43,950 bases of DNA from a virus (IMGVR_UViG_3300032216_000553:1-43950), one strand, 5' to 3'. Positions 1,659 to 43,782 are shown, numbered from the stretch's first letter. Numbers and translations: made by a program. Notes: generated from the letters alone by a model not told the origin.

Positions 1659-3218
1659 ATGGCCTACACCGACGCACAAATTCAAGCTGCCATTGATGCT
1701 TCACGAAAGCAAGGCTTTACCGACCAGCAAATTCAGCAGGGTTCTCTTGCTAACTTGGGTATCGACACAAGCAAATTTTTTAGTTCGCCTGCTCAAGGGA
1801 TTGCCACTCTTCCACAAGAAGTTGCACCTCAGCTGCAAGCGGCTCAACCTACTTATCATGTTTCTCCTTCTGAAAATGTAAGTAGCAATAAGTTAGATGT
1901 ATCTCGTTTGCCTTCCGATGTCATTGGTTTTAATCCAGATGACAATGGTCAGCCAACGATGTATTCGCAAAACATTCCAATTGACCCTAAAAATCCTACA
2001 GGAGCGGGTGTATATAAATCTTGGGATGCCGCTGGTAATCCTGTAGAAACAAAAAAATATGGATCGTTAATTACCGATAACGGAGGCTTCCTTAGTGGAG
2101 GTTTCTTTGGACATAATAGTCTCTTTGGAACCCTTGCTCCTATTGCAGCTGCCGCTTATGGCCTTAACGAAGCGGGTTTGTTGGGGGGTGCAGGAGCTGG
2201 AGCAGGCGCTGGTATTTCTGATGCTGCTTTGCTTGGCGGCGAATATGCAGGCGGTTTAGGACAAACTGGCGCTCTTACCGGAGGCATTACCAATGCTGCT
2301 GCTTTAGGTGGCGAATATTTGGGTGGATTAGGCGCTACTGGAGCACTCACAGCTGGGGTTAGCAGTCTGGCTGGTTTAGAAGCAGCTGAAAACGCAGACC
2401 TTACAAAAATGATGGCTGATTATGGTTTGGGGCCAAATGGACCAGTTCCTGTTCCGGGATATGTTCCTATTACACCAACGCCTGTTGTTCCCGTTACACC
2501 CACTACATCGGTTGCTCCCGTTACACCCACCACACCAGTTACACCCACCACACCAGTTACACCTACTACGCCCGTAGTACCCGGTGGAACAAGCCTTATT
2601 GACGCTGCCGCTAAAGCCACTGGTTTATCGACAAATACCTTGTCTGGGCTGCTCGGTGCTTTGGGTGGTGCGGGGGTTTCTTCTTTGCTTGGTGGCGGAC
2701 AACAGCAGCAGGCACCTACATCTGCGCCCCAAAAAGATATGTTGGCTGGTTTGAGTTCCAGCTATACGCCTACCCGTTACAAGCCGTATGCAGATGGTGG
2801 CATCGCTACTTTGGGCCAAAGCGGTAACTTAACCGTGGGCGGCAACCCCGTGGATTTATCAGATTCCAACAGAGGGTTTGACTGGCAGTCTAAGTCGTTC
2901 CCCACAGTATCTATGGCAACGGGCGGCATCACTGATTTGGGTAGTTATTCTGATGGTGGTCGTCTGCTGCGCGGCCCCGGTGATGGGGTATCTGACAGCA
3001 TCCCTGCAATGATTGGCAACAAGCAGCCTGCCCGTTTGGCTGATGGCGAGTTTGTGATTCCAGCCCGCATCGTGTCTGAACTTGGTAACGGTTCTACAGA
3101 GGCTGGTGCCCGTCAGCTTTACGCCATGATGGATAGAATTCAGCATGCCCGCCGCAAGACAATTGGCAAAGACGCCGTAGCTACCAATACTAAAGCGGCA
3201 AAATACCTGCCAACATGA
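1659..3218 (+). CDS. Putative internal virion/DNA-ejection protein
   Basis: 519 aa with Gly/Ala-rich hydrophobic stretches, PVTPTT repeats and C-terminal GPGDGVSDSIPA...LADGEFVIPA motif seen in phage tail/ejection proteins. Confidence 0.6.
   Translation: MAYTDAQIQAAIDASRKQGFTDQQIQQGSLANLGIDTSKFFSSPAQGIATLPQEVAPQLQAAQPTYHVSPSENVSSNKLDVSRLPSDVIGFNPDDNGQPTMYSQNIPIDPKNPTGAGVYKSWDAAGNPVETKKYGSLITDNGGFLSGGFFGHNSLFGTLAPIAAAAYGLNEAGLLGGAGAGAGAGISDAALLGGEYAGGLGQTGALTGGITNAAALGGEYLGGLGATGALTAGVSSLAGLEAAENADLTKMMADYGLGPNGPVPVPGYVPITPTPVVPVTPTTSVAPVTPTTPVTPTTPVTPTTPVVPGGTSLIDAAAKATGLSTNTLSGLLGALGGAGVSSLLGGGQQQQAPTSAPQKDMLAGLSSSYTPTRYKPYADGGIATLGQSGNLTVGGNPVDLSDSNRGFDWQSKSFPTVSMATGGITDLGSYSDGGRLLRGPGDGVSDSIPAMIGNKQPARLADGEFVIPARIVSELGNGSTEAGARQLYAMMDRIQHARRKTIGKDAVATNTKAAKYLPT
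2517..2570 (+). repeat. 18-bp coding tandem repeat (PVTPTT x3, plus degenerate copies upstream)
   Basis: cc(c/a)gttacacc(c/t)ac(c/t)ac(a/g) repeated in frame. Confidence 0.85.
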
Positions 3219-3641
3219 AGATTTCTTACGTCCCTGTCGGGCAAATATCTGGACTTATACCAGCGCTTTTGCCATACTTAACCAAGTCTGAGCAGTGGTC
3301 TGACGGGCGCGTATCTGTTGATGATTTACTACGCCTTATGCTCAATGACCTGCTTCAATTGTGGGTCGTGCATGAGGAAACAACCATACACGGTTTCTTT
3401 GGCGTAGAGGTCAAACAATATCCGCAAGCCAAAATGCTGACGGTTCAATACTGTGCAATGGAGACGGGTACTGGATGCGGTAGACAGTCAGATGATGGAC
3501 ATAGCAGAAGATGTTGCCAAGAAATCCGGTTGTGCTGGCGTAGAGTTTATTGGCCGTCCCGGCTGGAAGAAAATTGTTCAAGACCACGGGTACAACGTGC
3601 AAAGCGTCATGTACCAAAAGTTCTTTAAGGAGTACCTATGA
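3215..3641 (+). pseudogene. Acetyltransferase-like (GNAT-type) virion-module gene split by a frameshift near 3470
   Basis: N-half (QLWVVH..GFFGVEVKQYPQAKML) is in the 3215 frame; C-half (AKKSGCAGVEFIGRPGWKK..GY) is in the +1 frame ending at 3641. Together they make one coherent protein of about 142 aa. Confidence 0.7.
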
Positions 3642-4750
3642 GTACCGGTTCCGCACAACAAACGTCAACAACCACAGCGGGCGTATCACCGTTTGCACAG
3701 AATTATGTGAACTCCATGCTGGGTGCCGCACAGCAGCAGGTGTTTAATGTTGACCCCACAAGCAATCAGATTACCGGCATCAATCCTTATCAGGCGTTTG
3801 GTTCACCTGTAGCTGGTTCCCAATATGCGGCAGGTATGGGGCCGGGCGAACAAGCAGCAGCCCAAGCGGCGGTAGCTGGGCCTAGCGGGTTACAACAGCA
3901 AGCCTATCAATCTGCCGGTCAAATGCAGACCCCCGGTCAATTTGGTACCGCTACAGATATTGGTCAGACGGCTGGTTATGGCTTGCTTGGCACGGCTGGT
4001 CAGGCTCAAGGTCTTCAAAACCTCGGTATGCAGGCTGTCCAACAAGGTCAGCAGTATGGTCAAAACCTGACCAACCCAGCCATTACTCAGCAATACATGT
4101 CGCCCTACATGCAGAATGTGGTGGACGTACAGTCGCAACAAGCTAAACGCCAAGCGGCAATTGCAGATCAAACCCGCCAAGCCCAGTCAGCGCGTCAGGG
4201 TATGTTTGGTGGTGTGGGCGATGTGCTTAGTCGCAATCAAGCCAACGCTGAGTTGCAACGTAACCTGCAAGGTATCCAAGCGTCTGGCACACAGAGCGCA
4301 TTTCAGAATGCCCAAGCACAGCAAGCTGCGGCACAGCAACAAGCCATGCAAGGTTTGCAAACTGGCATCCAAGGTTATGGTGCTGGCATTCAAGGTCAGC
4401 AGGGTGCATACGGTACCGCTCTCCAAGGCGCTGGCACTTTAGGTACGTTAGGTTCGCAGCAGCTTTCAGCACAGCAAGGTATTGCAGGATTGCAAAATCA
4501 ATTTGGTCAGCAACAGCAAACCAATCAGCAGGCTGTTATCAACCAAGCTATGCAAAACCTGCAAAATCAAAAGATGTATCCGCAGCAGCAGTTGCAGTAT
4601 CTCAGCGGCATGTTGTCTGGTTTACCGGTTAGTTCTACTGGTAACGTCACTAATATTCCTGCGCCTAATTTGACCTCTCAAATTGCTGGTTTAGGTATGA
4701 CAGGTATTGCCGGTTTGGGCTTGTATAACGCAATGAACCCCATCAAATAA
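3638..4750 (+). CDS. DNA ejection/pilot protein (Gln/Gly/Ala-rich)
   Basis: SD AAGGAG. YMSPYMQNVVD...GMFGG motif and Q-rich coiled segments typical of podovirus ejection proteins. Confidence 0.65.
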   Translation: MSTGSAQQTSTTTAGVSPFAQNYVNSMLGAAQQQVFNVDPTSNQITGINPYQAFGSPVAGSQYAAGMGPGEQAAAQAAVAGPSGLQQQAYQSAGQMQTPGQFGTATDIGQTAGYGLLGTAGQAQGLQNLGMQAVQQGQQYGQNLTNPAITQQYMSPYMQNVVDVQSQQAKRQAAIADQTRQAQSARQGMFGGVGDVLSRNQANAELQRNLQGIQASGTQSAFQNAQAQQAAAQQQAMQGLQTGIQGYGAGIQGQQGAYGTALQGAGTLGTLGSQQLSAQQGIAGLQNQFGQQQQTNQQAVINQAMQNLQNQKMYPQQQLQYLSGMLSGLPVSSTGNVTNIPAPNLTSQIAGLGMTGIAGLGLYNAMNPIK

Positions 4751-4759
4751 GGAGTAGCC

Positions 4760-6316
4760 ATGTCTGGTATTGTGCAAAAAGTAATGGCTGACCCATCCAA
4801 GTACTCAGTTGATGAGTTAAAACATGGAGTGCAAGTAGGAGTTATACCCGCCTACATTGGCATTCCGTTAATCCAGCAAAAAATGCAGGAAGACCAAAGA
4901 ATGCGGGCAGCGGCTGCTGGCCCCCAACAACAGACTCCGATTGCAGAAGAAGTTTTGGCTGGTGTTGACCGCCTTCGTACTAACCTTCCCCAACAATACG
5001 CGGGTGGCGGCATCATTGCGTTTGACGAAGGTGGTTCTGTACCACGGTTTCAAGTGGGGGGTTCAACTGCTGGTCTTCTTGGCAAACTGTTTGACCCCTA
5101 TGCAAATTTAACTCCTGTAGAGCGTGCGCGAATGGAGGCTTTGCAACGAGAAAAAGGACTTGCAACTGCTAGTTTTGCATTACCTCAACCTCCTGCTGCA
5201 CCTACTGAACAAGATGTTTTGCCTAAACCATTTGTAGCCAATAATTTATACACACTGGATAAAAACCCTACTACTGCTCCCGCAGTAAACCCGCAAACAC
5301 CGCCACAAACACCACCACAAACACCGTCCACCATTCCCGGTGCAAGTGGTTTTAAGATGCCAACACTGCCTACGGTTACATTGCCACAGGCACCAGCGCT
5401 AATTGACTACAGCACGTTTACAGCCAAACTGCCAGAGAACATGAAAAGCGCATCGGAAGAGGCGGTCAAAGCAACTCAAAAAGAGTTGGAAGGTTTTGAT
5501 AAACCGGGCTTTGAAGCACGTGAAGCTAGACTTGGCAAACGTGAAACTGGTCTGCAAAAAGAAACTGAAATCGGTCGTTGGATGGCACTCCTCAAAGGTG
5601 GCCTTAAAACTTTTGGTGGCACGTCTCCTTTTGGTTCCGTGAATCTCGGTGAAGGCATGGCTTCCGGTGTAGATGAACTTATTCGTGGTGAAGCCGCAAA
5701 TCGCGTTGCCAAGGACAGGCTGGAAGATGCACGTGACAACTTAGAGCAACAAAAAGTTGCTGCCAAGAAAGGCAACTATCAAGCTGCTCAAGCTGCGGGT
5801 AGCCGTGCGGCTGATGATGTTCGTGCAAGTGCCCAGTTCTCGATGCAGGGTGCTCATTACGGTAACACCGACTCATTGCAACGCACTCAACTTTTACAGC
5901 AAGGCATACTTGGAAAAGCTCAACAAGAACAGTCGGGCATATTGGGTCTTGCCAATTTAGGGCTTCAAAAAGAACACCTTGCTCAAACTGGAGCGATTGC
6001 CAAACAACAACTTCAACTTGGTCAAGAAAAACTTGATCTACTTAAAAACCAAATTGCCGCTGGTAACAAAGCGGCTGAAGCTAAGTTGGCTGGCGCACAA
6101 ATACAAGCCGCAAAACTTTTCCAAAACGACTCTGCATACAACATACTTGTACGTGACTTAGTGAAACGATATGGTAATTTGAACCATCCTGATGCTCAAA
6201 AAGAAATTGCGGATGCTCGTAACCGTTTCATGGAAACTACGGTTCCTCAATTGCTTGGTGGTGCCGGGGGGCCTCAAATCCCATCTTTCAATGATCTGAT
6301 CAAAGCAACGGACTAA
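4760..6316 (+). CDS. Putative DNA ejection/internal virion protein
   Basis: SD AAGGAG. Helical and Q/A-rich, with YAGGGIIAFDEGG motif. Sits between two ejection genes. Confidence 0.55.
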   Translation: MSGIVQKVMADPSKYSVDELKHGVQVGVIPAYIGIPLIQQKMQEDQRMRAAAAGPQQQTPIAEEVLAGVDRLRTNLPQQYAGGGIIAFDEGGSVPRFQVGGSTAGLLGKLFDPYANLTPVERARMEALQREKGLATASFALPQPPAAPTEQDVLPKPFVANNLYTLDKNPTTAPAVNPQTPPQTPPQTPSTIPGASGFKMPTLPTVTLPQAPALIDYSTFTAKLPENMKSASEEAVKATQKELEGFDKPGFEAREARLGKRETGLQKETEIGRWMALLKGGLKTFGGTSPFGSVNLGEGMASGVDELIRGEAANRVAKDRLEDARDNLEQQKVAAKKGNYQAAQAAGSRAADDVRASAQFSMQGAHYGNTDSLQRTQLLQQGILGKAQQEQSGILGLANLGLQKEHLAQTGAIAKQQLQLGQEKLDLLKNQIAAGNKAAEAKLAGAQIQAAKLFQNDSAYNILVRDLVKRYGNLNHPDAQKEIADARNRFMETTVPQLLGGAGGPQIPSFNDLIKATD

Positions 6317-6319
6317 CCC

Positions 6320-9300
6320 ATGATCATCACCCTGCCCAAACTCGGCCCAGTACGTTTTGACGATAACTTATCGCCAGAAGAGTTTCAGCAGCAGGTTGAA
6401 ACGCTTTCTAAAAAATACGATTTTAAGATTCCAAAACCCGATGTAGGGATTGGCACCCTCCTTGGGCGGGGGTTTATGCGTGGCATGGGGGAAACAGGTA
6501 TCGCTTTGGGCGACATCCTTCCTGCTATGGGCGCATCTGCGCTTGGTTTTGAAGACTACGCCAAAAAACAAATGGGTGAAGCTGCCGCATCACGTGCGGA
6601 GCTAGAGCGTAAGTACCCCACACAGTTCAAGTCATATGAAGAAATTAGCAGTCCTTATGAGGCACTGCAATACGGCGCAGAAACTTTGGGTGAACTTGGC
6701 CCTACTGCACTGACCGCCATGATTCCCGGTATTGGTGCGGAAGCTGTTGGCGCTAGGTTGGCTGGTCAAAGTGCGCTTCGTGCCGCACAAGCGGCTGGCC
6801 CTGTGTCCCGTGCTGGTCTAGCTGCTGTTGAAAAAACCGCTGAGACTGCTGGTCGCCGTGCAATGTATGGTGGTGTGTATCTTGGGTCGTTTGCCCAGAA
6901 CGCTCCTGAAGTGTTTGAAAGCATCTACAAAGAAACCAACAAGATGGAGCCGGGGATTGCTGCCCTTGCTGGTGGCATCTCATCGCTCTTAGATTCTGTG
7001 GTTCCGGGCCAAGTGATGGACAACTTGGGCAAGTACGGCAAGATGAAGGTTGTTGAGCAGTTGGTCAAAGACTCCGGTGCTGCACCTAAAGTATGGAAGT
7101 ACATCGGCAAAGAAGCTGTTAAGACCGCAGGTGCTGAAGGTCTAACTGAAACCGCGCAAGAGGCTATCAATGCCGCTGCTGAACAAGTTGCTGGTAGTAC
7201 CAAAGGTTTGCTAGACCCAGAGAACATTCAGCGCTTCAAAGAATCGTTTGTCAAAGGTGCAATCGGTGGCGGCGCGTTTGGTACTGTCGGTGGCACAAGC
7301 CAAGGTCTTACTGCACGTAAAGAATACCGCAACACCAAAGAAGCTGAAGAAGCACTGCAAGCCCAGTATGAAGCTGAGAAGGCGGCTGGCACACTTACAC
7401 CCGAGAAAGCTGCTGAATACGAAGCACAAATCGAAGCTGCCCGTAAACAGCGTGAAGCGGAGCTAACTCAAACCTTTGCGGGTCTGCCTGACTTCAACCA
7501 GCGACAAGTTGAGTTGCAAGCATTACAAGCGCGTATGGATCAGGCGCGTCCCGGCTCTCCTGCGTATGCTGAATTGGAAGAAAAGATCAAAGCGGCACAG
7601 GAAGAAGTTGCTGCTGAACAAGCCAAGCAAGCTGAGATTGATGCCAAGAAAGCCGAAGGTAGTGCGTTTGCCAAAGTGCCCCCCACGCCCGGTACTGGTG
7701 GAATGTACAAGCCGGGGCTAGAACAACAACGTGCAGAACAGCAAGCGGCTACCCGTCAGTTTGCGTTTGGGCCTGTAGCTACAAACGTCCCCGGTGACCC
7801 AGTTACTGTTGACACTCTAAAAAATCTTAAGGTGTCTGACCGTTCTAAGGTTGGCATGGAGTTGCTTGGCACTGACCTTGATACTGCCGATGGTCGCCGT
7901 AAATTTATTCAGACGCTGGAGAACCCCAGCTTCATGGGTAACATCGACCCCGCTGCCTACGATGACATCATCAGTACGTTTGACCCCAAAGAGGTCGCTG
8001 CGGCACGTGCTGAAATGAAAGCAGAGACGCTTTCTCCCACAAAGCAGAAACAGCAAGAGCAAACACGAACATTTGCATTTGGAGCACCTAATGTTACAAG
8101 ACCTAACGCCCCATCAGCTGGAGGAAGCGCTGGCATGGCTGGCAAGTCCGATACAGGAGGCACCACCACAACCACTGAAGGAACTGAACCCGGTGGAATG
8201 GTATCTACTGGAACAACTACTGAACAACCTACTGACGGAGAAGGACAGCAGTCCACTACAGTAAATGAAGGAATCGCAACTGATGGCACTACGACCACTA
8301 AAACCCAGCAAACAGAAACGCAAGGACAAGAAGCACCAACCGCTGGAACCCCAACAGTAACTGTTTCAGACCAAGATATTGTGCATGCCAAGTTAGGACA
8401 ACGAGGCGTGAAACTGGATGAGCAGGGTAAGGATGCAAAAGCCTATTTTGGCAAAGTAACGGTTCCGCTTGCGTTGGATTCAATTGCCAACGACTTGGTG
8501 TATCAACCCACGGCGTATCGCAACGCCAAAATGAAAGCGTTTGAGAACCACCCCAATGGCCCTCAACCAGCGTTTAGTAACGAAGCAGAGGCTGCATTTT
8601 TCTTAGGGCAAGGCGGGGTGCATGCTAAAAATGCTGCTGCGTGGGTTCGTGCAAACATGTCCCCAGAATCTGTGGCGTTCATGGAGCAGAAGGTTGCACA
8701 GTACGAGAAAGAAAAGCGCCGGTCTGAATCTGTGCGCCGCCGTCAAGAAGCACAGACTAAAGTTCGCAAAGCCACTAAGCAGCAAGTTGCTGATGAGACT
8801 GCCACTGCTGAAGCTGAAGGCGAATATGTACCGACCAAAGATGACATCAAAGAGTTCTACGGCACCAAATCCAAAGCTGGTAAAGAAAAAGGTCGCCTGC
8901 AACGCCTAGCCAACGAGTTGGCACAGGAAGATTTGTATGGTGATCTGGATAACATTGCAGATAGCGATCTTGGCAACTTGTTGGCAGACGAAGAGCTTGC
9001 CGCGCTACATTCACAGGCCCACCCGGTAGTCTTGAACCAGTTAGCGAATAACAACTTGGTAGGTGCGTTGAACGCGCTGGCCGAAAGCGGTTCGTCTAAA
9101 GGCGCTGAACTTTTTGCACGTCTGCTGGCTAAAGTTGTTGGTGATGTGAATGTTGTGTATGGCGCTGAGAAGTCCATGTACGACCCAAAGACCAACACTG
9201 TGTATCTGCGTGATGGCGCTAGTGAGTACGAGATTATTCACGAGGCATCTCATGCTGCCATGTCTCACGTGCTGGATAACCCATCGCATCCAGTCACTCG

Positions 9301-12300
9301 CCAACTGACAACTTTGTTTAATCAGTTGAAGAGCAGCACTGAAGGAACTTATGGAGCGCAGAACTTACAAGAGTTTGCGGCCGAAGCGTGGAGTAATGAT
9401 GCTTTCCGTAGCCATCTGAAACAGTTCAAACCCACTGGCGAAAAGCTCACTGGTTGGGAGCGGCTGGTCAATGCCGTGCGTCAGTTGTTCCGTTTGCCAC
9501 CCAAGCATGAGACTGCGTTGACTGCAATTGACCGCATGCTCAATGAGATTGTTAGCCCACCACCCGAGACTCGCACGGGTGAAACTTTGTACGCGCAGTC
9601 ACTGCACAATCCTAATGTGGTGCAGGAGATGTTCACAAAGATGAACAAAACCATCCGCAAGCAACCCGTGATGAATACTGAACGTGCAGTTGGGTTTTGG
9701 AAAGCTGCGGAAAAAGTAGGTGCCACGGGCCGCACGTTGATGTACAAGTCGCTGAACTTGTTTGCTTTGGGCGATGTTGCCAAGAAGTATTTGGGTGACA
9801 GTGCTGTCCGATTTGCCAACACTATTGAAGAAATGGCTGGCTATCAGGAGAAGCTGCGTGAGGCAATGATTCCTTTGCACAACCGTCTTGAAGCGTTCCG
9901 TCAGTCTGACCGTTATCAAGCATGGTCTACGCTGGTGAACGACACAACCCGCGAAGATGTGAATCCCGATGCTCCGTTGAGCAAGTACCAAGGCAGTCCT
10001 GAAAAGGTAGCCCAGTGGAAACAGTTCAATGCCCGGTTTAACAAGCTGACAGATTCTGAAAAGAAACTGTACCGTGATTTGTTTGCCACTTACAAAGCTC
10101 TTGATGATGAGTTCTTGAAATCGTTGGAGCGCAATGTCGAGGCCACGGTGGGTGACAAAGCCAAGGCAGCATCTGCTTATCAAAAGATTTTGTTTGAATT
10201 GAGCACCCTGCGTATTGACCACTATGCCCCGCTGTTCCGCGAAGGGCCATTTTGGTTGCAGTACGACATCAATGGAGATGTTGAGAAGCAGACGTTTGCC
10301 TCTGAAGCCGAGCGTGACTTTGCACGTAAGCAACTGGAAGCCAAGGGCGCGACTAACTTTGACGCTTACTCACGCGCTGATCAACTGACTACCAAGACAG
10401 TACCGTCCGGTTCGATGCTTGCCGACATCATGAAGATCATGAAAGACAACGGTGCCGGTGAAGATGCGATTAACGACTTGATACAACTTGTTGTTAAGTC
10501 CATGCCCGAGGCCAGCATCCTCAAGAGCCGTCAGAAGCGTACCGGTATTGGCGGTTACATCGACAACGCAGCTTATGTGTTTGATCGTGTGAGCAGTGGC
10601 ACAGCGCGGCAATTGGCCCGGATGCAGTATGGCCCTGAACTACAACGTCTTGTGAAAGAGATGGAAGAGACGGTCAACAAAGCACGTGGCGATGCAAACA
10701 CCTATGGTGTGGAACTTCTCAAAGAGTTTGAAGGTCGCCGCCAGTTTGCGATGAAGCCCACTCTGTCCAATTTGTCGCAGTTTGCCAGTAGCGGCGCGTT
10801 CTATTACAACTTGGCCGGTAACGTATCTTCTGCACTGGTCAACTTGTTGCAGACTCCCATGATTGTCTTCCCGCAATTGGGTGGTGAGTATGGGTTCAAA
10901 GCTGCTGGTGACGCACTGAACAATGCCCGCAAACTTTATACAGGCAGTGGCTTCTCACGCAAAGTTACCGAACTGACGGGTGAGGCTTCTGATCAAAGGG
11001 CAATGACTTCTATTGAGAACTTGGTCAATGCTGGCAAAGCTGAACGCTATCGTGCCCTCATTGAAGCCATGAAGTCCCAAGGCATGTTGACTACATCAAC
11101 AGCACGTGATGCGTTGTATTCAGAAAACGACAACAAATCACTGTACGGAAGCACAGGCAAACTACAACGTATCACTACGTTGGTAGGCTCGTTCATGTTC
11201 CATCACGCCGAGCGCATGAACCGTGAGATTACCGCAGTGGCTGCATTTGATTTGGAGATGCAGAAGCTAAAGAACTCCAAGATGTCTGATGCGGAAAAGC
11301 AAACGCAAGCCATCAACAAAGCCATGAAGATGGTGGAGTATTCGCACGGTGCTGGTAGTACGCTGTCTGGGCCTAGCCTCGGTCAGAGTGACCTAGGAAA
11401 AGTTTTGATGGTGTTCAAACGCTATGCGTTCAGCATGTACTACATGTTGTTCGATACCATGATGCGTTCGCTCCCCGTGAAAGGTGCGACAGGTGAACAG
11501 CTTGAGCAGATCAAAGCAGCACGTAAACAACTCGCTGGCATTTATGGCATGGCGGCATTGTTCGCAGGTGCGAAGGGCGTACCTTTGTATTGGGTGGCTG
11601 AATTGGCTTACAACATGTTCCAAGGCGATGACGATGATGACTTTGATACTGTCATGCGCGGATTCCTTGGTGACTTTGCGTACAAAGGCCCAGTTAACTA
11701 CCTGACTAACCTGAGTGTTGCTGATCGTGTGGGTTGGACAGACTTGTTGTGGCGTGAGCAAAAAGGTAGCAAAGCCGACGCAAGTGCGTTGTCTCAGTTT
11801 GTGGAGGGGGTGCTTGGTGCTCCGTACTCAATTGCTGACAGCATCTTGCGGGGTAAAGACCTGATGGCCGAGGGCCAGTTTGAGCGTGGCATTGAGGCTA
11901 TGCTGCCTGTGTCTCTGCGTAACATCATGAAGAGCATCCGATACGCAAATGAAGGTGCTAATACATTGCGTGGTGATGCAGTGGGAGATGTGAACGGTTA
12001 CAACGCTGCCATGCAGATATTAGGTTTTGCACCCGCTGACCTGATGAAGCAGTACGAAGAAAATGCGTACATGACTGGCAAAGCCAAAGCCATCCGCACT
12101 CAAGAGAAAAACGCACTAAAGAAATACTATGCGGCTATGCGGGAGGGTGATACCGATGGCATGATGGACGCGCAAGAAAAGTTGTTTGACCTTGGTACAA
12201 AGTATCCCGAGTTGGGTATTACCCAAGACACACTGAATAAGTCAGTAGCTTCCCGCGAACGCATTTCAAGAGAGATGTATCACGGTGTGCAACTTGACCG

Positions 12301-12352
12301 TAAGCTGGCACCGTATCTGAGGCAAGCCGCAGCAGGAGCATACGGCGAATAA
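6320..12352 (+). CDS. Giant internal virion/ejection (polyvalent) protein with zincin-like metallopeptidase domain
   Basis: 2010 aa, last gene of the structural arm. IIHEASHAA followed by a downstream QEFAAEA motif; hydrophobic helices at the N- and C-termini. Confidence 0.7.
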   Translation: MIITLPKLGPVRFDDNLSPEEFQQQVETLSKKYDFKIPKPDVGIGTLLGRGFMRGMGETGIALGDILPAMGASALGFEDYAKKQMGEAAASRAELERKYPTQFKSYEEISSPYEALQYGAETLGELGPTALTAMIPGIGAEAVGARLAGQSALRAAQAAGPVSRAGLAAVEKTAETAGRRAMYGGVYLGSFAQNAPEVFESIYKETNKMEPGIAALAGGISSLLDSVVPGQVMDNLGKYGKMKVVEQLVKDSGAAPKVWKYIGKEAVKTAGAEGLTETAQEAINAAAEQVAGSTKGLLDPENIQRFKESFVKGAIGGGAFGTVGGTSQGLTARKEYRNTKEAEEALQAQYEAEKAAGTLTPEKAAEYEAQIEAARKQREAELTQTFAGLPDFNQRQVELQALQARMDQARPGSPAYAELEEKIKAAQEEVAAEQAKQAEIDAKKAEGSAFAKVPPTPGTGGMYKPGLEQQRAEQQAATRQFAFGPVATNVPGDPVTVDTLKNLKVSDRSKVGMELLGTDLDTADGRRKFIQTLENPSFMGNIDPAAYDDIISTFDPKEVAAARAEMKAETLSPTKQKQQEQTRTFAFGAPNVTRPNAPSAGGSAGMAGKSDTGGTTTTTEGTEPGGMVSTGTTTEQPTDGEGQQSTTVNEGIATDGTTTTKTQQTETQGQEAPTAGTPTVTVSDQDIVHAKLGQRGVKLDEQGKDAKAYFGKVTVPLALDSIANDLVYQPTAYRNAKMKAFENHPNGPQPAFSNEAEAAFFLGQGGVHAKNAAAWVRANMSPESVAFMEQKVAQYEKEKRRSESVRRRQEAQTKVRKATKQQVADETATAEAEGEYVPTKDDIKEFYGTKSKAGKEKGRLQRLANELAQEDLYGDLDNIADSDLGNLLADEELAALHSQAHPVVLNQLANNNLVGALNALAESGSSKGAELFARLLAKVVGDVNVVYGAEKSMYDPKTNTVYLRDGASEYEIIHEASHAAMSHVLDNPSHPVTRQLTTLFNQLKSSTEGTYGAQNLQEFAAEAWSNDAFRSHLKQFKPTGEKLTGWERLVNAVRQLFRLPPKHETALTAIDRMLNEIVSPPPETRTGETLYAQSLHNPNVVQEMFTKMNKTIRKQPVMNTERAVGFWKAAEKVGATGRTLMYKSLNLFALGDVAKKYLGDSAVRFANTIEEMAGYQEKLREAMIPLHNRLEAFRQSDRYQAWSTLVNDTTREDVNPDAPLSKYQGSPEKVAQWKQFNARFNKLTDSEKKLYRDLFATYKALDDEFLKSLERNVEATVGDKAKAASAYQKILFELSTLRIDHYAPLFREGPFWLQYDINGDVEKQTFASEAERDFARKQLEAKGATNFDAYSRADQLTTKTVPSGSMLADIMKIMKDNGAGEDAINDLIQLVVKSMPEASILKSRQKRTGIGGYIDNAAYVFDRVSSGTARQLARMQYGPELQRLVKEMEETVNKARGDANTYGVELLKEFEGRRQFAMKPTLSNLSQFASSGAFYYNLAGNVSSALVNLLQTPMIVFPQLGGEYGFKAAGDALNNARKLYTGSGFSRKVTELTGEASDQRAMTSIENLVNAGKAERYRALIEAMKSQGMLTTSTARDALYSENDNKSLYGSTGKLQRITTLVGSFMFHHAERMNREITAVAAFDLEMQKLKNSKMSDAEKQTQAINKAMKMVEYSHGAGSTLSGPSLGQSDLGKVLMVFKRYAFSMYYMLFDTMMRSLPVKGATGEQLEQIKAARKQLAGIYGMAALFAGAKGVPLYWVAELAYNMFQGDDDDDFDTVMRGFLGDFAYKGPVNYLTNLSVADRVGWTDLLWREQKGSKADASALSQFVEGVLGAPYSIADSILRGKDLMAEGQFERGIEAMLPVSLRNIMKSIRYANEGANTLRGDAVGDVNGYNAAMQILGFAPADLMKQYEENAYMTGKAKAIRTQEKNALKKYYAAMREGDTDGMMDAQEKLFDLGTKYPELGITQDTLNKSVASRERISREMYHGVQLDRKLAPYLRQAAAGAYGE
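8091..8264 (+). CDS. Putative overprinted small protein (57 aa) in the +1 frame of the giant gene
   Basis: GGAG at 8081-8084, ATG at 8091. Amphipathic-helix-like sequence MLQDLTPHQLEEALAWLASP...EWYLLEQLLNNLL. The main frame is low-complexity here. Confidence 0.55.
   Translation: MLQDLTPHQLEEALAWLASPIQEAPPQPLKELNPVEWYLLEQLLNNLLTEKDSSPLQ
8283..8360 (+). CDS. Putative overprinted basic peptide (25 aa)
   Basis: AAGGA upstream of ATG 8283. MALRPLKPSKQKRKDKKHQPLEPQQ, same +1 frame as the 8091 ORF. Confidence 0.35.
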   Translation: MALRPLKPSKQKRKDKKHQPLEPQQ

Positions 12353-41984: not shown

Positions 41985-42002
41985 TCCTTAACGGAGTTTA
42001 AT

Positions 42003-42860
42003 ATGGCTTATCCTACTGTATCGGCACCTTATGGTGTGCTGCCACAGAATTTGATTGGTGGCCAAGTTTACGCAGGTTCTACTCGTCAGTATCCTATTGC
42101 GTACAACTACGGCACCAACATTTTCTACGGCGATCTGGTGACTCTGGGAACTACCGGCTCTACCGCTGGTTGCATTATCCCTGCGGCTACTAACACTAGC
42201 TTGACCTCTAAAGGCACCGTTGGTGTCTTCTTGGGTTGTTCTTATACCAACCCCACCACCAAGCAAAAGCTGTTCTCGCAGTACTATCCTGCAAGCACCG
42301 CCGCTGGTGATATTCAGGCCATCGTCGCTGACGATCCTGATACCGTGTTCAAGATGGTGGCAGTGGCTTCGTCCTCTTCCAACGTCATCTCTTCGTTCCC
42401 CTCCGCTATGGTGGGCTTGAACGCTGTGGAGAACACTCCTGTGGGCAACACCACTACTGGCAACTCTGGTGCTGGTTTGGTTGCTGCAAACACCACCACT
42501 GCTGTGGGTTCCGGTGGCGCTTTCCGTATCTTGGGTCTTGTGCCCGATACCCAAATCACCACTTCCGCTACCTTCGTGAGCACCACCACAACCTCGTTTG
42601 TTGTGTCTGGTTTGACCGTTGGTCAAGTGATCCCCGTTGGCACTGACATCTTCCAATTGGTTGGTGGTCAGCTCCAGCAGCTTGGCGTTGGCGCAAACGT
42701 GGCTACTGCCGCTACTGTGTCCACCACTGGTAACACTACGCTGACCATCAGCGCTGCTGTGACCACTACGCCTTCGGCTGGTGCAACGATTGTCTTGGTT
42801 CAGTCTCCAGAAGTTCTGGTGAAGTTGAACTTCGGCGTTCATAACTACTACGCCGCTTAA
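42003..42860 (+). CDS. Putative capsid decoration/cement protein
   Basis: Thr/Gly/Val-rich; IFYGDLV, GVFLGCSYT and DDPD motifs; immediately upstream of the MCP. Confidence 0.6.
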   Translation: MAYPTVSAPYGVLPQNLIGGQVYAGSTRQYPIAYNYGTNIFYGDLVTLGTTGSTAGCIIPAATNTSLTSKGTVGVFLGCSYTNPTTKQKLFSQYYPASTAAGDIQAIVADDPDTVFKMVAVASSSSNVISSFPSAMVGLNAVENTPVGNTTTGNSGAGLVAANTTTAVGSGGAFRILGLVPDTQITTSATFVSTTTTSFVVSGLTVGQVIPVGTDIFQLVGGQLQQLGVGANVATAATVSTTGNTTLTISAAVTTTPSAGATIVLVQSPEVLVKLNFGVHNYYAA

Positions 42861-42870
42861 GGAGTAAATC

Positions 42871-43782
42871 ATGGCTATTTCACGTGCCCAACTACTGAAA
42901 GAGTTGCTCCCCGGTCTGAACGCTTTGTTCGGTCTGGAATACGCCCGTTACGGCGAAGAGCACAAAGAAATCTACGAAACCGAAACCTCGGAGCGTAGTT
43001 TTGAAGAAGAAACCAAGCTGTCTGGTTTCTCTGCTGCACCTGTCAAAAACGAAGGTTCTGCCATTCGTTACGACAATGCACAGGAAGCATGGACTGCACG
43101 CTACAACCACGAAACCATCGCTTTGGGTTTCTCGCTGACCGAAGAGGCCATCGAAGACAACTTGTACGACAGCCTGTCTGCTCGTTACACCAAAGCTCTG
43201 GCCCGTGCTATGGCGTACACCAAGCAGGTGAAAGCCGCTGCCGTTATCAACAACGGCTTCAACAACGGCTACCAAGGTGGTGACGGCGCTCCGCTGTTCA
43301 GCACCAATCACACTCTGGTGTCTGGTGGTTCTAACAGCAACACTCCTTCCGTTGCAGCTGACCTGAACGAGACTTCTTTGGAAGCCGCCGTGATTCAGAT
43401 CGCCGCTTGGACAGACGAGCGTGGCCTGTTGATCGCTGCTAAACCCAAGAAGCTGATCGTTCCTCCAGCATTGATGTTCGTCGCTACCCGCCTGCTCGAA
43501 ACCGAGTTGCGCGTTGGTACTACCGACAACGACATCAATGCTCTGAAGAACAACGGTTCGATCCCCGAGGGTTACACCGTTAACCACTTCTTGACCGACA
43601 GCAACGGCTGGTACCTCACCACCGATGTGCCTAACGGCATGAAGCACTTCGTTCGTACACCCCTGCAAAACAGCATGGACGGTGACTTCGATACTGGTAA
43701 CGTGCGTTACAAGTCTCGTGAGCGTTACAGCTTCGGCTGGTCTGATCCATTGGGCATGTTCGGTTCACCCGGCGCGTCCTGA
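42871..43782 (+). CDS. Major capsid protein
   Basis: MAISRAQLLKELLPGLNALFG, EG..I.YD, KLIVPP and RERYSFGWSD motifs; strongly biased codons; followed by a terminator. Confidence 0.9.
   Translation: MAISRAQLLKELLPGLNALFGLEYARYGEEHKEIYETETSERSFEEETKLSGFSAAPVKNEGSAIRYDNAQEAWTARYNHETIALGFSLTEEAIEDNLYDSLSARYTKALARAMAYTKQVKAAAVINNGFNNGYQGGDGAPLFSTNHTLVSGGSNSNTPSVAADLNETSLEAAVIQIAAWTDERGLLIAAKPKKLIVPPALMFVATRLLETELRVGTTDNDINALKNNGSIPEGYTVNHFLTDSNGWYLTTDVPNGMKHFVRTPLQNSMDGDFDTGNVRYKSRERYSFGWSDPLGMFGSPGAS

Follow-up and report, generated by a model that had tools for sequence, protein, structure and literature searches.

Two small genes, here called ORF-A and ORF-B, are nested in the +1 frame of a giant gene of the virus analysed, and comparison with relatives indicates that both frames are kept by purifying selection on their own proteins. 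ORF-A is almost certainly a real gene. This judgement rests on its relatives, in which the frame is intact and the substitution pattern inverted, and not on the single genome. ORF-B is very probably a real gene as well. From their sequences the two appear to represent new small-protein families; nested genes themselves are a known kind. The window, that is, the whole stretch of DNA analysed, is a virus record of 43,950 bases in which a profile search finds terminase, portal, capsid, polymerase, helicase and primase genes. The features discussed below are as follows.

6320..12352, plus strand: host gene, encoding a 2010-aa DarB-like polyvalent protein (ORF reading; profile matches)
8081..8084, plus strand: Shine-Dalgarno (SD) GGAG of ORF-A, 6 nt upstream of its ATG (direct reading)
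8090..8359, plus strand: dual-coding linker of the giant protein, main residues about 591-680 (frame-wise pN/pS; insertions)
8091..8264, plus strand: ORF-A, 57 aa, +1 frame, tail [LIV][HQ] (ATG 8091, TAA 8262-8264)
8268..8272, plus strand: SD AAGGA of ORF-B, 10 nt before its ATG (direct reading)
8283..8360, plus strand: ORF-B, 25 aa, +1 frame (ATG 8283, TAA 8358-8360)
9239..9253, plus strand: HExxH motif of a metallopeptidase-like domain, residues 974-978 (alignment of relatives)

The giant host gene belongs to the large polyvalent, DarB-like kind treated in PMC5512222. Residues 1365-2002, the C-terminal third of its protein, match phrog_10089 (DarB-like) with an E of 2.7e-73, which places it in the DarB-like family by profile; a match to LPD39 (E 6.7e-6) falls just short of the LPD39 cut-off. 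At less than 30% identity the protein has relatives in 68 phage records, many of them annotated as DarB-like or PLxRFG, and the cultured phages SopranoGao, Parlo, PEp14 and F116 also match at less than 30%. Its place in the late gene block makes it likely an internal virion (ejection) protein that is probably injected; the analogy is with gp47 of phi24B, which combines LPD and metallopeptidase and is reported to be present in virions (bioRxiv 10.64898/2026.04.10.717836). The H, E and H of the HExxH motif and two later Glu are invariant in 45 aligned relatives; Pfam Tox-MPTase4 matches the giant protein weakly (E 0.042), and a fold search with the peptidase domain gave no match at E<=1e-3. One binned contig carries the label Polaromonas, a label that does not establish the bacterial host. 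Elsewhere in the window, two overlapping ORFs of 137 and 62 aa (3215-3641) jointly match a single 140-aa gene of L220-L223, which suggests a frameshift near 3450 in the window copy, either an assembly error or a broken gene. A 285-aa gene at 42003-42860 (+) is covered entirely by an opposite-strand frame open for 294 codons (41988-42872, -), likely an effect of codon bias.

The original prediction placed within the giant gene a GGAG-N6-ATG leading a 57-codon +1 ORF and an AAGGA..ATG leading one of 25 codons. Direct reading finds both, and the quoted peptide ends agree. It further described the main frame around 8080-8360 as low in complexity with many A-ending codons, and the composition bears this out: T26, G16, A7, E7 and Q7 make up most of the 90 residues at codons 591-680, and A-ending codons reach 44% there against 20% elsewhere. 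The AAGGA of ORF-B begins three bases past the ORF-A stop, so placed that translational coupling of the two is possible; an alternative in-frame ATG at 8265 would lengthen the ORF-B product to 31 aa. Predicted folding at the start regions is weak (-4.6 kcal/mol for ORF-A and -3.6 for ORF-B vs a gene mean of -9.7). The single promoter-like site (7878-7905) is no better than chance would give. The giant protein contains a short motif twice, at residues about 477-490 and 578-590, and the second copy provides the SD of ORF-A.

The two products have opposite net charges, -7 for the acidic ORF-A and +6 for the basic ORF-B. ORF-B consists of 11 near-invariant N-terminal residues, a Lys/Arg run and a Pro-rich end. 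For ORF-A, AlphaFold2 predicts three helices (residues 7-18, 27-30 and 34-53; pLDDT 82.6). Of the earlier description of this product as an amphipathic helical protein, the helical part is thus supported by the model, whereas amphipathicity is only moderate, with hydrophobic moments of 0.32 in helix 1 and 0.14 in helix 3.

In a single genome the occurrence of such ORFs is not beyond chance; across relatives it is. Synonymous shuffles of the giant gene (n=200) contain on average 1.09 SD-led +1 ORFs of at least 57 codons, and among 20000 resamplings the +1 frame stays open over ORF-A in 7257 and over ORF-B in all 20000. The giant gene of the window holds 4 further SD-led +1 ORFs of at least 20 aa, and 677 of them were counted in 190 related large ORFs (collapsed from 255; one, L219, is unrelated). 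Because single genes often hold such ORFs by chance, one might suppose that the +1 frames simply follow from how the linker uses codons, or from a motif conserved as RNA or DNA. Against this, change in the +1 frame is mostly synonymous, ORF-B codes its Ser as both AGC and TCN, the length and stop are fixed, and ORF-A occurs as a free-standing copy. In our opinion an artefact of this sort has next to no probability.

The comparison with relatives begins with 17 loci that were fetched via the downstream main-frame region and hence carry no bias for ORF-A. It is intact in 16 of them, with the same start and stop, two of these loci being at 29% main-frame identity; in the exception, L015, the region is missing, and L007 and L008 are identical. 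A further 80 loci were fetched by the ORF-A profile. In 96 of 98 sources ORF-A has a canonical start (L072 has ORF-A without one), and all copies are nested and in the same register. They range in length from 56 to 59 codons, and their starts are preceded by a purine-rich SD, the start picker having favoured SD-led codons. The +1 frame is open over ORF-A in 31/31 close relatives, the median over all the 57-codon windows of the gene being 6%. The SD, start and +1 frame, whose conservation the original prediction had named as a check, are kept in the relatives.

The companion check, substitution by frame, also came out in favour of the +1 frame. After identical ORF-A sequences were collapsed (96 to 68 distinct), pN/pS is 0.11 in the ORF-A frame vs 3.99 in the main frame for pairs at least 90% identical (n=20), and 0.17 vs 2.84 for pairs 80-90% identical (n=69), these pairs being not independent of one another. 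In a scan of 100 windows of 20 codons over 180 host pairs, position 1 of the main codons is more variable than position 3 only in five windows, at residues 581-680, which correspond to ORF-A and ORF-B. The in-frame insertions that relatives carry in the linker sit directly past the ORF-A stop. In the main frame the linker is kept open, but its amino acids are not conserved. The earlier idea that the linker is shaped by +1 coding is borne out by this inversion, confined as it is to residues 581-680, and the sequence comparison supports reading the low-complexity linker as a by-product of +1 coding.

A degenerate ORF-A pattern gives an estimate of 660 IMG/VR contigs. Among 122 loci, 120 have an ORF-A profile match, of which 81 are nested in a frame of at least 300 codons, 38 lie on short open pieces and 1 is free; L218 and L219 have no match. 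Protein databases contain 72 and 148 small unnamed relatives, so that gene callers do list ORF-A at times, probably on fragments. The suspicion that gene callers miss these small genes is thus right for nested copies, while relatives of ORF-A are sometimes listed. We also considered a programmed +1 frameshift into ORF-A and rejected it: the upstream frame is open for just 4 to 74 codons and is not conserved, the SD and start are conserved, and free copies exist.

The ORF-B core is found in 29 of the 68 ORF-A hosts, the remaining 39 having no ORF-B. Its start codon, which the search did not force, is present in 29/29 (ATG 12, GTG 12, TTG 5), and a strict list of SD sequences recognises one in 19/29. 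Its own frame shows 84% identity and the main frame 49%, and 59% of the differences fall at its own third positions; in three loci a stop stands one codon upstream of the start. Among 119 loci selected by pattern, in which positions 1-11 were forced by the search, every synonymous option that spares the main frame is used, Ser being one example, and the unforced positions 12-16 remain Lys/Arg-rich. The pattern is estimated to occur in 390 IMG/VR contigs. All 80 long viral ORF-B loci are nested, and in further matches the carrier frame is open in 116/121, with four contigs short or frame-broken.

The relationship between the two ORFs is loose in both distance and co-occurrence. From the ORF-A stop to the ORF-B start there are 5-8 codons in 16/29 relatives and up to 357 in others. 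ORF-B was found in 103 genes, 25 of which do not have ORF-A; in 77 of the 78 genes with both, ORF-A is upstream. None of 10 ORF-B-only records (4 of them at least 90% complete) has ORF-A elsewhere. The complete genome G003 has the giant gene with ORF-B and a capsid protein 92% identical to that of the window, and no detectable ORF-A. Three complete genomes have kept ORF-B with neither a detectable match to the window capsid or portal protein nor ORF-A; for this reason the head is unlikely to be the ORF-B target, which on the sequence evidence is probably a host molecule, and probably nucleic acid given the basic charge. One further copy (L346:1423-1533, minus strand) has a strong SD and is nested, in the +1 frame, in a 166-aa gene (1394-1894) that is unrelated and stands beside a Neck1 gene; among 22 distinct relatives of this 166-aa gene one contains it and the 21 others do not, and a chimeric assembly is possible. 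The giant gene of L013 holds two complete ORF-B cores and a third partial one. In L402, ORF-A and ORF-B are in different frames, with the carrier frame broken between them (an assembly indel or a real frameshift).

ORF-A can also leave its host gene. In L220 and L221 it is free-standing, with AGGAGG, between homologues of the window genes 3638-4750 and 4760-6316, while the relatives that are 54-60% identical to these free copies are nested. In G001, a 98% complete genome, the free copy is the only one. Trees were built for the neighbouring pilot-like protein (FastTree with 109 rows; IQ-TREE with 26 of the 109 rows, midpoint root), and in them the free pair falls within well-supported clades of nested-type loci, with IQ-TREE support around it of 100/100, 98/94 and 99/97. 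The free state looks derived, the nested state being ancestral to the one free lineage sampled. Loci were fetched with ORF-A or ORF-B patterns, and hence these counts are not population frequencies. As to the origin of ORF-A, either overprinting in the strict sense or capture of an older free gene would account for it.

Other nested ORFs were seen in related loci. In L018, L019, L021, L033, L132 and L166 a different SD-led +1 ORF of about 49 aa occupies the ORF-B slot after ORF-A; it belongs to one clade, and its sequence, Leu-rich and then basic, looks membrane-active. A nested +1 ORF of about 70 aa lies in the C-terminal third of the giant gene in 9 hosts (L056, L058, L059, L105, L106, L113 and L119 among the loci). 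Five loci that have no ORF-A (L226, L268, L277, L281, L291) carry a nested ORF upstream of ORF-B that is acidic, about 67 aa long and hydrophobic at its end; its profile matches one ORF-A copy at 7e-5, and it may be a remote relative.

The searches for known families gave little. The window copy of ORF-A has no useful match in Pfam or PHROGs, nor in the ESM Atlas or BFVD. When 64 relatives were searched against Pfam and PHROGs, one member matched Phage_TAC_7 at 6.6e-5 and 10/64 matched phrog_5825 weakly; no CIII match appeared among them or for ORF-A itself. The tBLASTn of the 57-aa peptide that the original prediction called for returned nothing useful from 50,697 phage records. Against PDB folds (VIA-align) the best Z is 4.9, with no fold match, and PDB sequences gave LRR-like chance matches only; P0073, a top HMM match, was set aside as a repeat artefact. 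For ORF-B nothing was found in the Atlas, PDB sequences, Pfam, PHROGs or phage records, and the searches lent no support to a resemblance, which we considered, between it and the N-terminus of ribosomal protein bL32. No description of either family appeared in the open-licence literature searched. In the main text of PMC5512222, on polyvalent proteins, the words 'overlap' and 'linker' do not occur.

One pointer to what ORF-A may do is its rate of change. Its mean identity is 53%, vs 19% for the host proteins and 21% for the peptidase regions (760 pairs). In five distant genomes compared with the window, identity is 43-63% for ORF-A, 82-89% for the capsid and 64-68% for the portal, apart from a single partial portal match at 47%; all five ORF-A genomes tested share one head family. 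Since ORF-A is far more conserved than the peptidase region, its partner is likely to be a head protein or some conserved protein of the host rather than the peptidase, which changes fast. The existence of a free-standing copy suggests that ORF-A acts in trans, and its apparent absence from G003 suggests that it is accessory.

The most distinct feature of ORF-A is its C-terminus. A tail [LIV][HQ] ends 200/213 database relatives, [LIV]H in 130/213 of them, and also 32/32 ORF-A copies in ORF-B-pattern loci and 16/16 in main-frame-homology loci, where the tail was not selected for; the background is 10/586 long ORF ends. The penultimate residue is L, I or V in 204/213 (Leu in the window) and the terminal one is His in 133/213. 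The window copy ends in Gln, as do 71/213 relatives and 73/164 nested copies. The antepenultimate residue is mostly Pro, not L/I, and the strict Lon degron motif fits 8/213. The host frame does not force this tail: it is kept in free copies, and 100 different main-frame tetrapeptides lie beneath it. In a possible host, 373 genes (542 kb, part of G017) show no enrichment of [LIV]Q or [LIV]H ends, a sample of little power.

Certain published tails resemble it. C-terminal x-L/I-L/I/V-H is an autonomous Lon degron that tolerates variation (VTLH, FTVH, LSLH), and working degrons deviate at the antepenultimate position too (PMC11986505); in one tested system an H-to-Q change raised the half-life from 152 to 402 min, Gln being among the poorer residues (Table S1 of the same paper). 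Caulobacter LarA acts on Lon through a C-terminal His tail (PMC10665427). Lambda CIII is a small amphipathic helical competitive substrate that inhibits an AAA+ protease (PMC1838920), and T4 PinA and T7 gp4.5 are small phage proteins that inhibit AAA+ proteases (PMC10286901). ORF-A resembles the Lon degron in its penultimate L/V/I and, in the 130 relatives ending in [LIV]H, in its terminal His; it differs in the terminal Gln of the window and about a third of its relatives, and in the Pro at -3. Its proposed likeness to CIII, PinA, gp4.5 and LarA is that all are small effectors of AAA+ proteases. None of these matches ORF-A in sequence, however, or is nested in a virion gene, and ORF-A often ends in Gln.

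We can now outline a possible scheme. Ribosomes would likely start ORF-A and ORF-B separately on the late mRNA, each at a binding site of its own. ORF-A would act in trans as an accessory late protein whose fixed tail is presented to a conserved host Lon-type protease, for which it would be a short-lived competitive substrate in the manner of CIII, and the protease would be buffered while the large, partly unfolded ejection proteins await packaging. ORF-B, a basic peptide, would work independently and bind some conserved molecule of the host, probably nucleic acid. That the tail is a protease signal is perhaps a little easier to accept than the scheme as a whole, yet we hold both only tentatively and would not be surprised to see either fail; that ORF-A shields the ejection proteins from the protease is a weaker claim than that of the tail signal. 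Gln, disfavoured by the tested Lon, is the last residue in the window copy and in at least a third of the family; the residue at -3 mostly departs from the strict motif; and a structural phage partner fits equally well an ORF that evolves at about the rate of the portal within one head family.

That last point leads to a reading which we rank close behind the protease-directed tail and regard as possible, if doubtful: ORF-A would be an adaptor that is accessory to assembly; docked by its tail on the portal, the capsid or a scaffold, as a conserved part of the head, it would help to load ejection proteins into the prohead, as Ulx may do for DarB in P1. Ulx is listed in PMC9024508 as helping DarB localization; it is a small helper encoded beside DarB, and the host gene here is likewise DarB-like. 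Ulx is a separate 17-kDa protein, however, and no PHROG connects it to ORF-A. The three complete genomes with other heads do not have ORF-A, the free copy remained in the same late block, and an H/Q exchange suits a binding pocket better than it suits the tested Lon preference. Against this reading, G003 has the same head family and is complete, yet ORF-A is not detectable in it, and in the searches made ORF-A resembled no known assembly factor in sequence or fold. It is also conceivable, though rather unlikely, that ORF-A uses its helical face and tail on a different conserved protein of the host, as a late takeover or counter-defence factor that is possibly packaged. Its conservation and dispensability agree with this, and small acidic helical proteins are frequent among phage inhibitors, but the searches made gave no candidate target, and a position in the late block is unusual for a takeover gene unless its product is packaged.

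The original prediction had offered a closer partner as one possibility: ORF-A or ORF-B, produced together with the giant protein, would chaperone or inhibit the metallopeptidase domain within it. Nesting does give co-expression, HExxH lies downstream of ORF-A in 61/62 long hosts, and self-processing by the MPTase has been proposed for polyvalent proteins (PMC5512222). There is also a precedent in E. coli GndA, an unstable amphipathic microprotein from an internal out-of-frame altORF of gnd that is reported to act on the host-frame product (bioRxiv 10.64898/2026.10.22.760973). GndA shares with ORF-A its out-of-frame internal origin, but the conservation of ORF-A, a phage family of hundreds of contigs, points away from the host-frame product. 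The gap of 53% to 21% in identity, the 25 of 103 ORF-B-carrying giant genes that do without ORF-A (complete genomes such as G003 included) and the ORF-B copy in a gene with no peptidase leave this idea unsupported so far, and we consider it unlikely; the alternative that the same prediction offered, a late regulator or accessory factor, is closer to the reading we favour. Less probable again is action in cis, likeliest for ORF-B, in which translation of the small ORFs would tune ribosome traffic, stalling or the stability of the giant mRNA. ORF-B has never been seen clearly free-standing, and it has the Lys/Arg run and Pro-rich end, but its conserved part is the N-terminus, its distance from ORF-A varies from 5 to 357 codons, one copy is in an unrelated gene, and ORF-A occurs as a free gene. 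A pair of antitoxin (the acidic, tail-destabilised ORF-A) and toxin (the basic ORF-B) would agree with their fixed order, opposite charges and frequent coupling. However, the toxin of a type II pair should not occur without its antitoxin, and ORF-B stands without ORF-A in 25 genes, with no copy elsewhere in the records inspected, while 39/68 ORF-A hosts have no ORF-B; we find this pairing very hard to credit.

Among known nested genes, the nearest are the spanins of lambda-like phages. Embedded and separated architectures of Rz/Rz1 both occur (PMC6139136), and there too a small gene lies wholly out of frame within a phage gene. ORF-A and ORF-B are not Rz1-type spanins, as they have no Cys, lipobox or transmembrane segment. 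The host gene of Rz1 encodes the i-spanin, whereas the one here encodes a 2010-aa DarB-like internal virion protein, and the nested genes described here, unlike Rz1, move between unrelated host genes. One could go further and speculate that mobile micro-gene modules, dual-frame and with a stop-free -1 frame, use the linkers of giant ejection genes as landing pads and hop between unrelated phage genes unseen by annotation; the slot would then have at least five unnamed families, ORF-A would be a Lon decoy co-translated with ejection proteins, and ORF-B a 25-residue host-targeting peptide near-unchanged across unrelated capsids. We mention this as a distinctly doubtful extension.

Nested genes of tailed phages are known mainly from spanins, and the two unnamed families reported here were hidden in a linker presumed to be disordered. 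As ORF-A and ORF-B illustrate, a low-complexity linker in a polyvalent virion protein can be a gene in the second frame, and the apparent fast evolution of such linkers is then partly illusory. The free ORF-A and the stray ORF-B copy show nested genes exiting and entering host genes. Finally, a 25-residue peptide and a 57-residue protein with a fixed tail may give new access to host proteolysis or to the machinery of nucleic acids.
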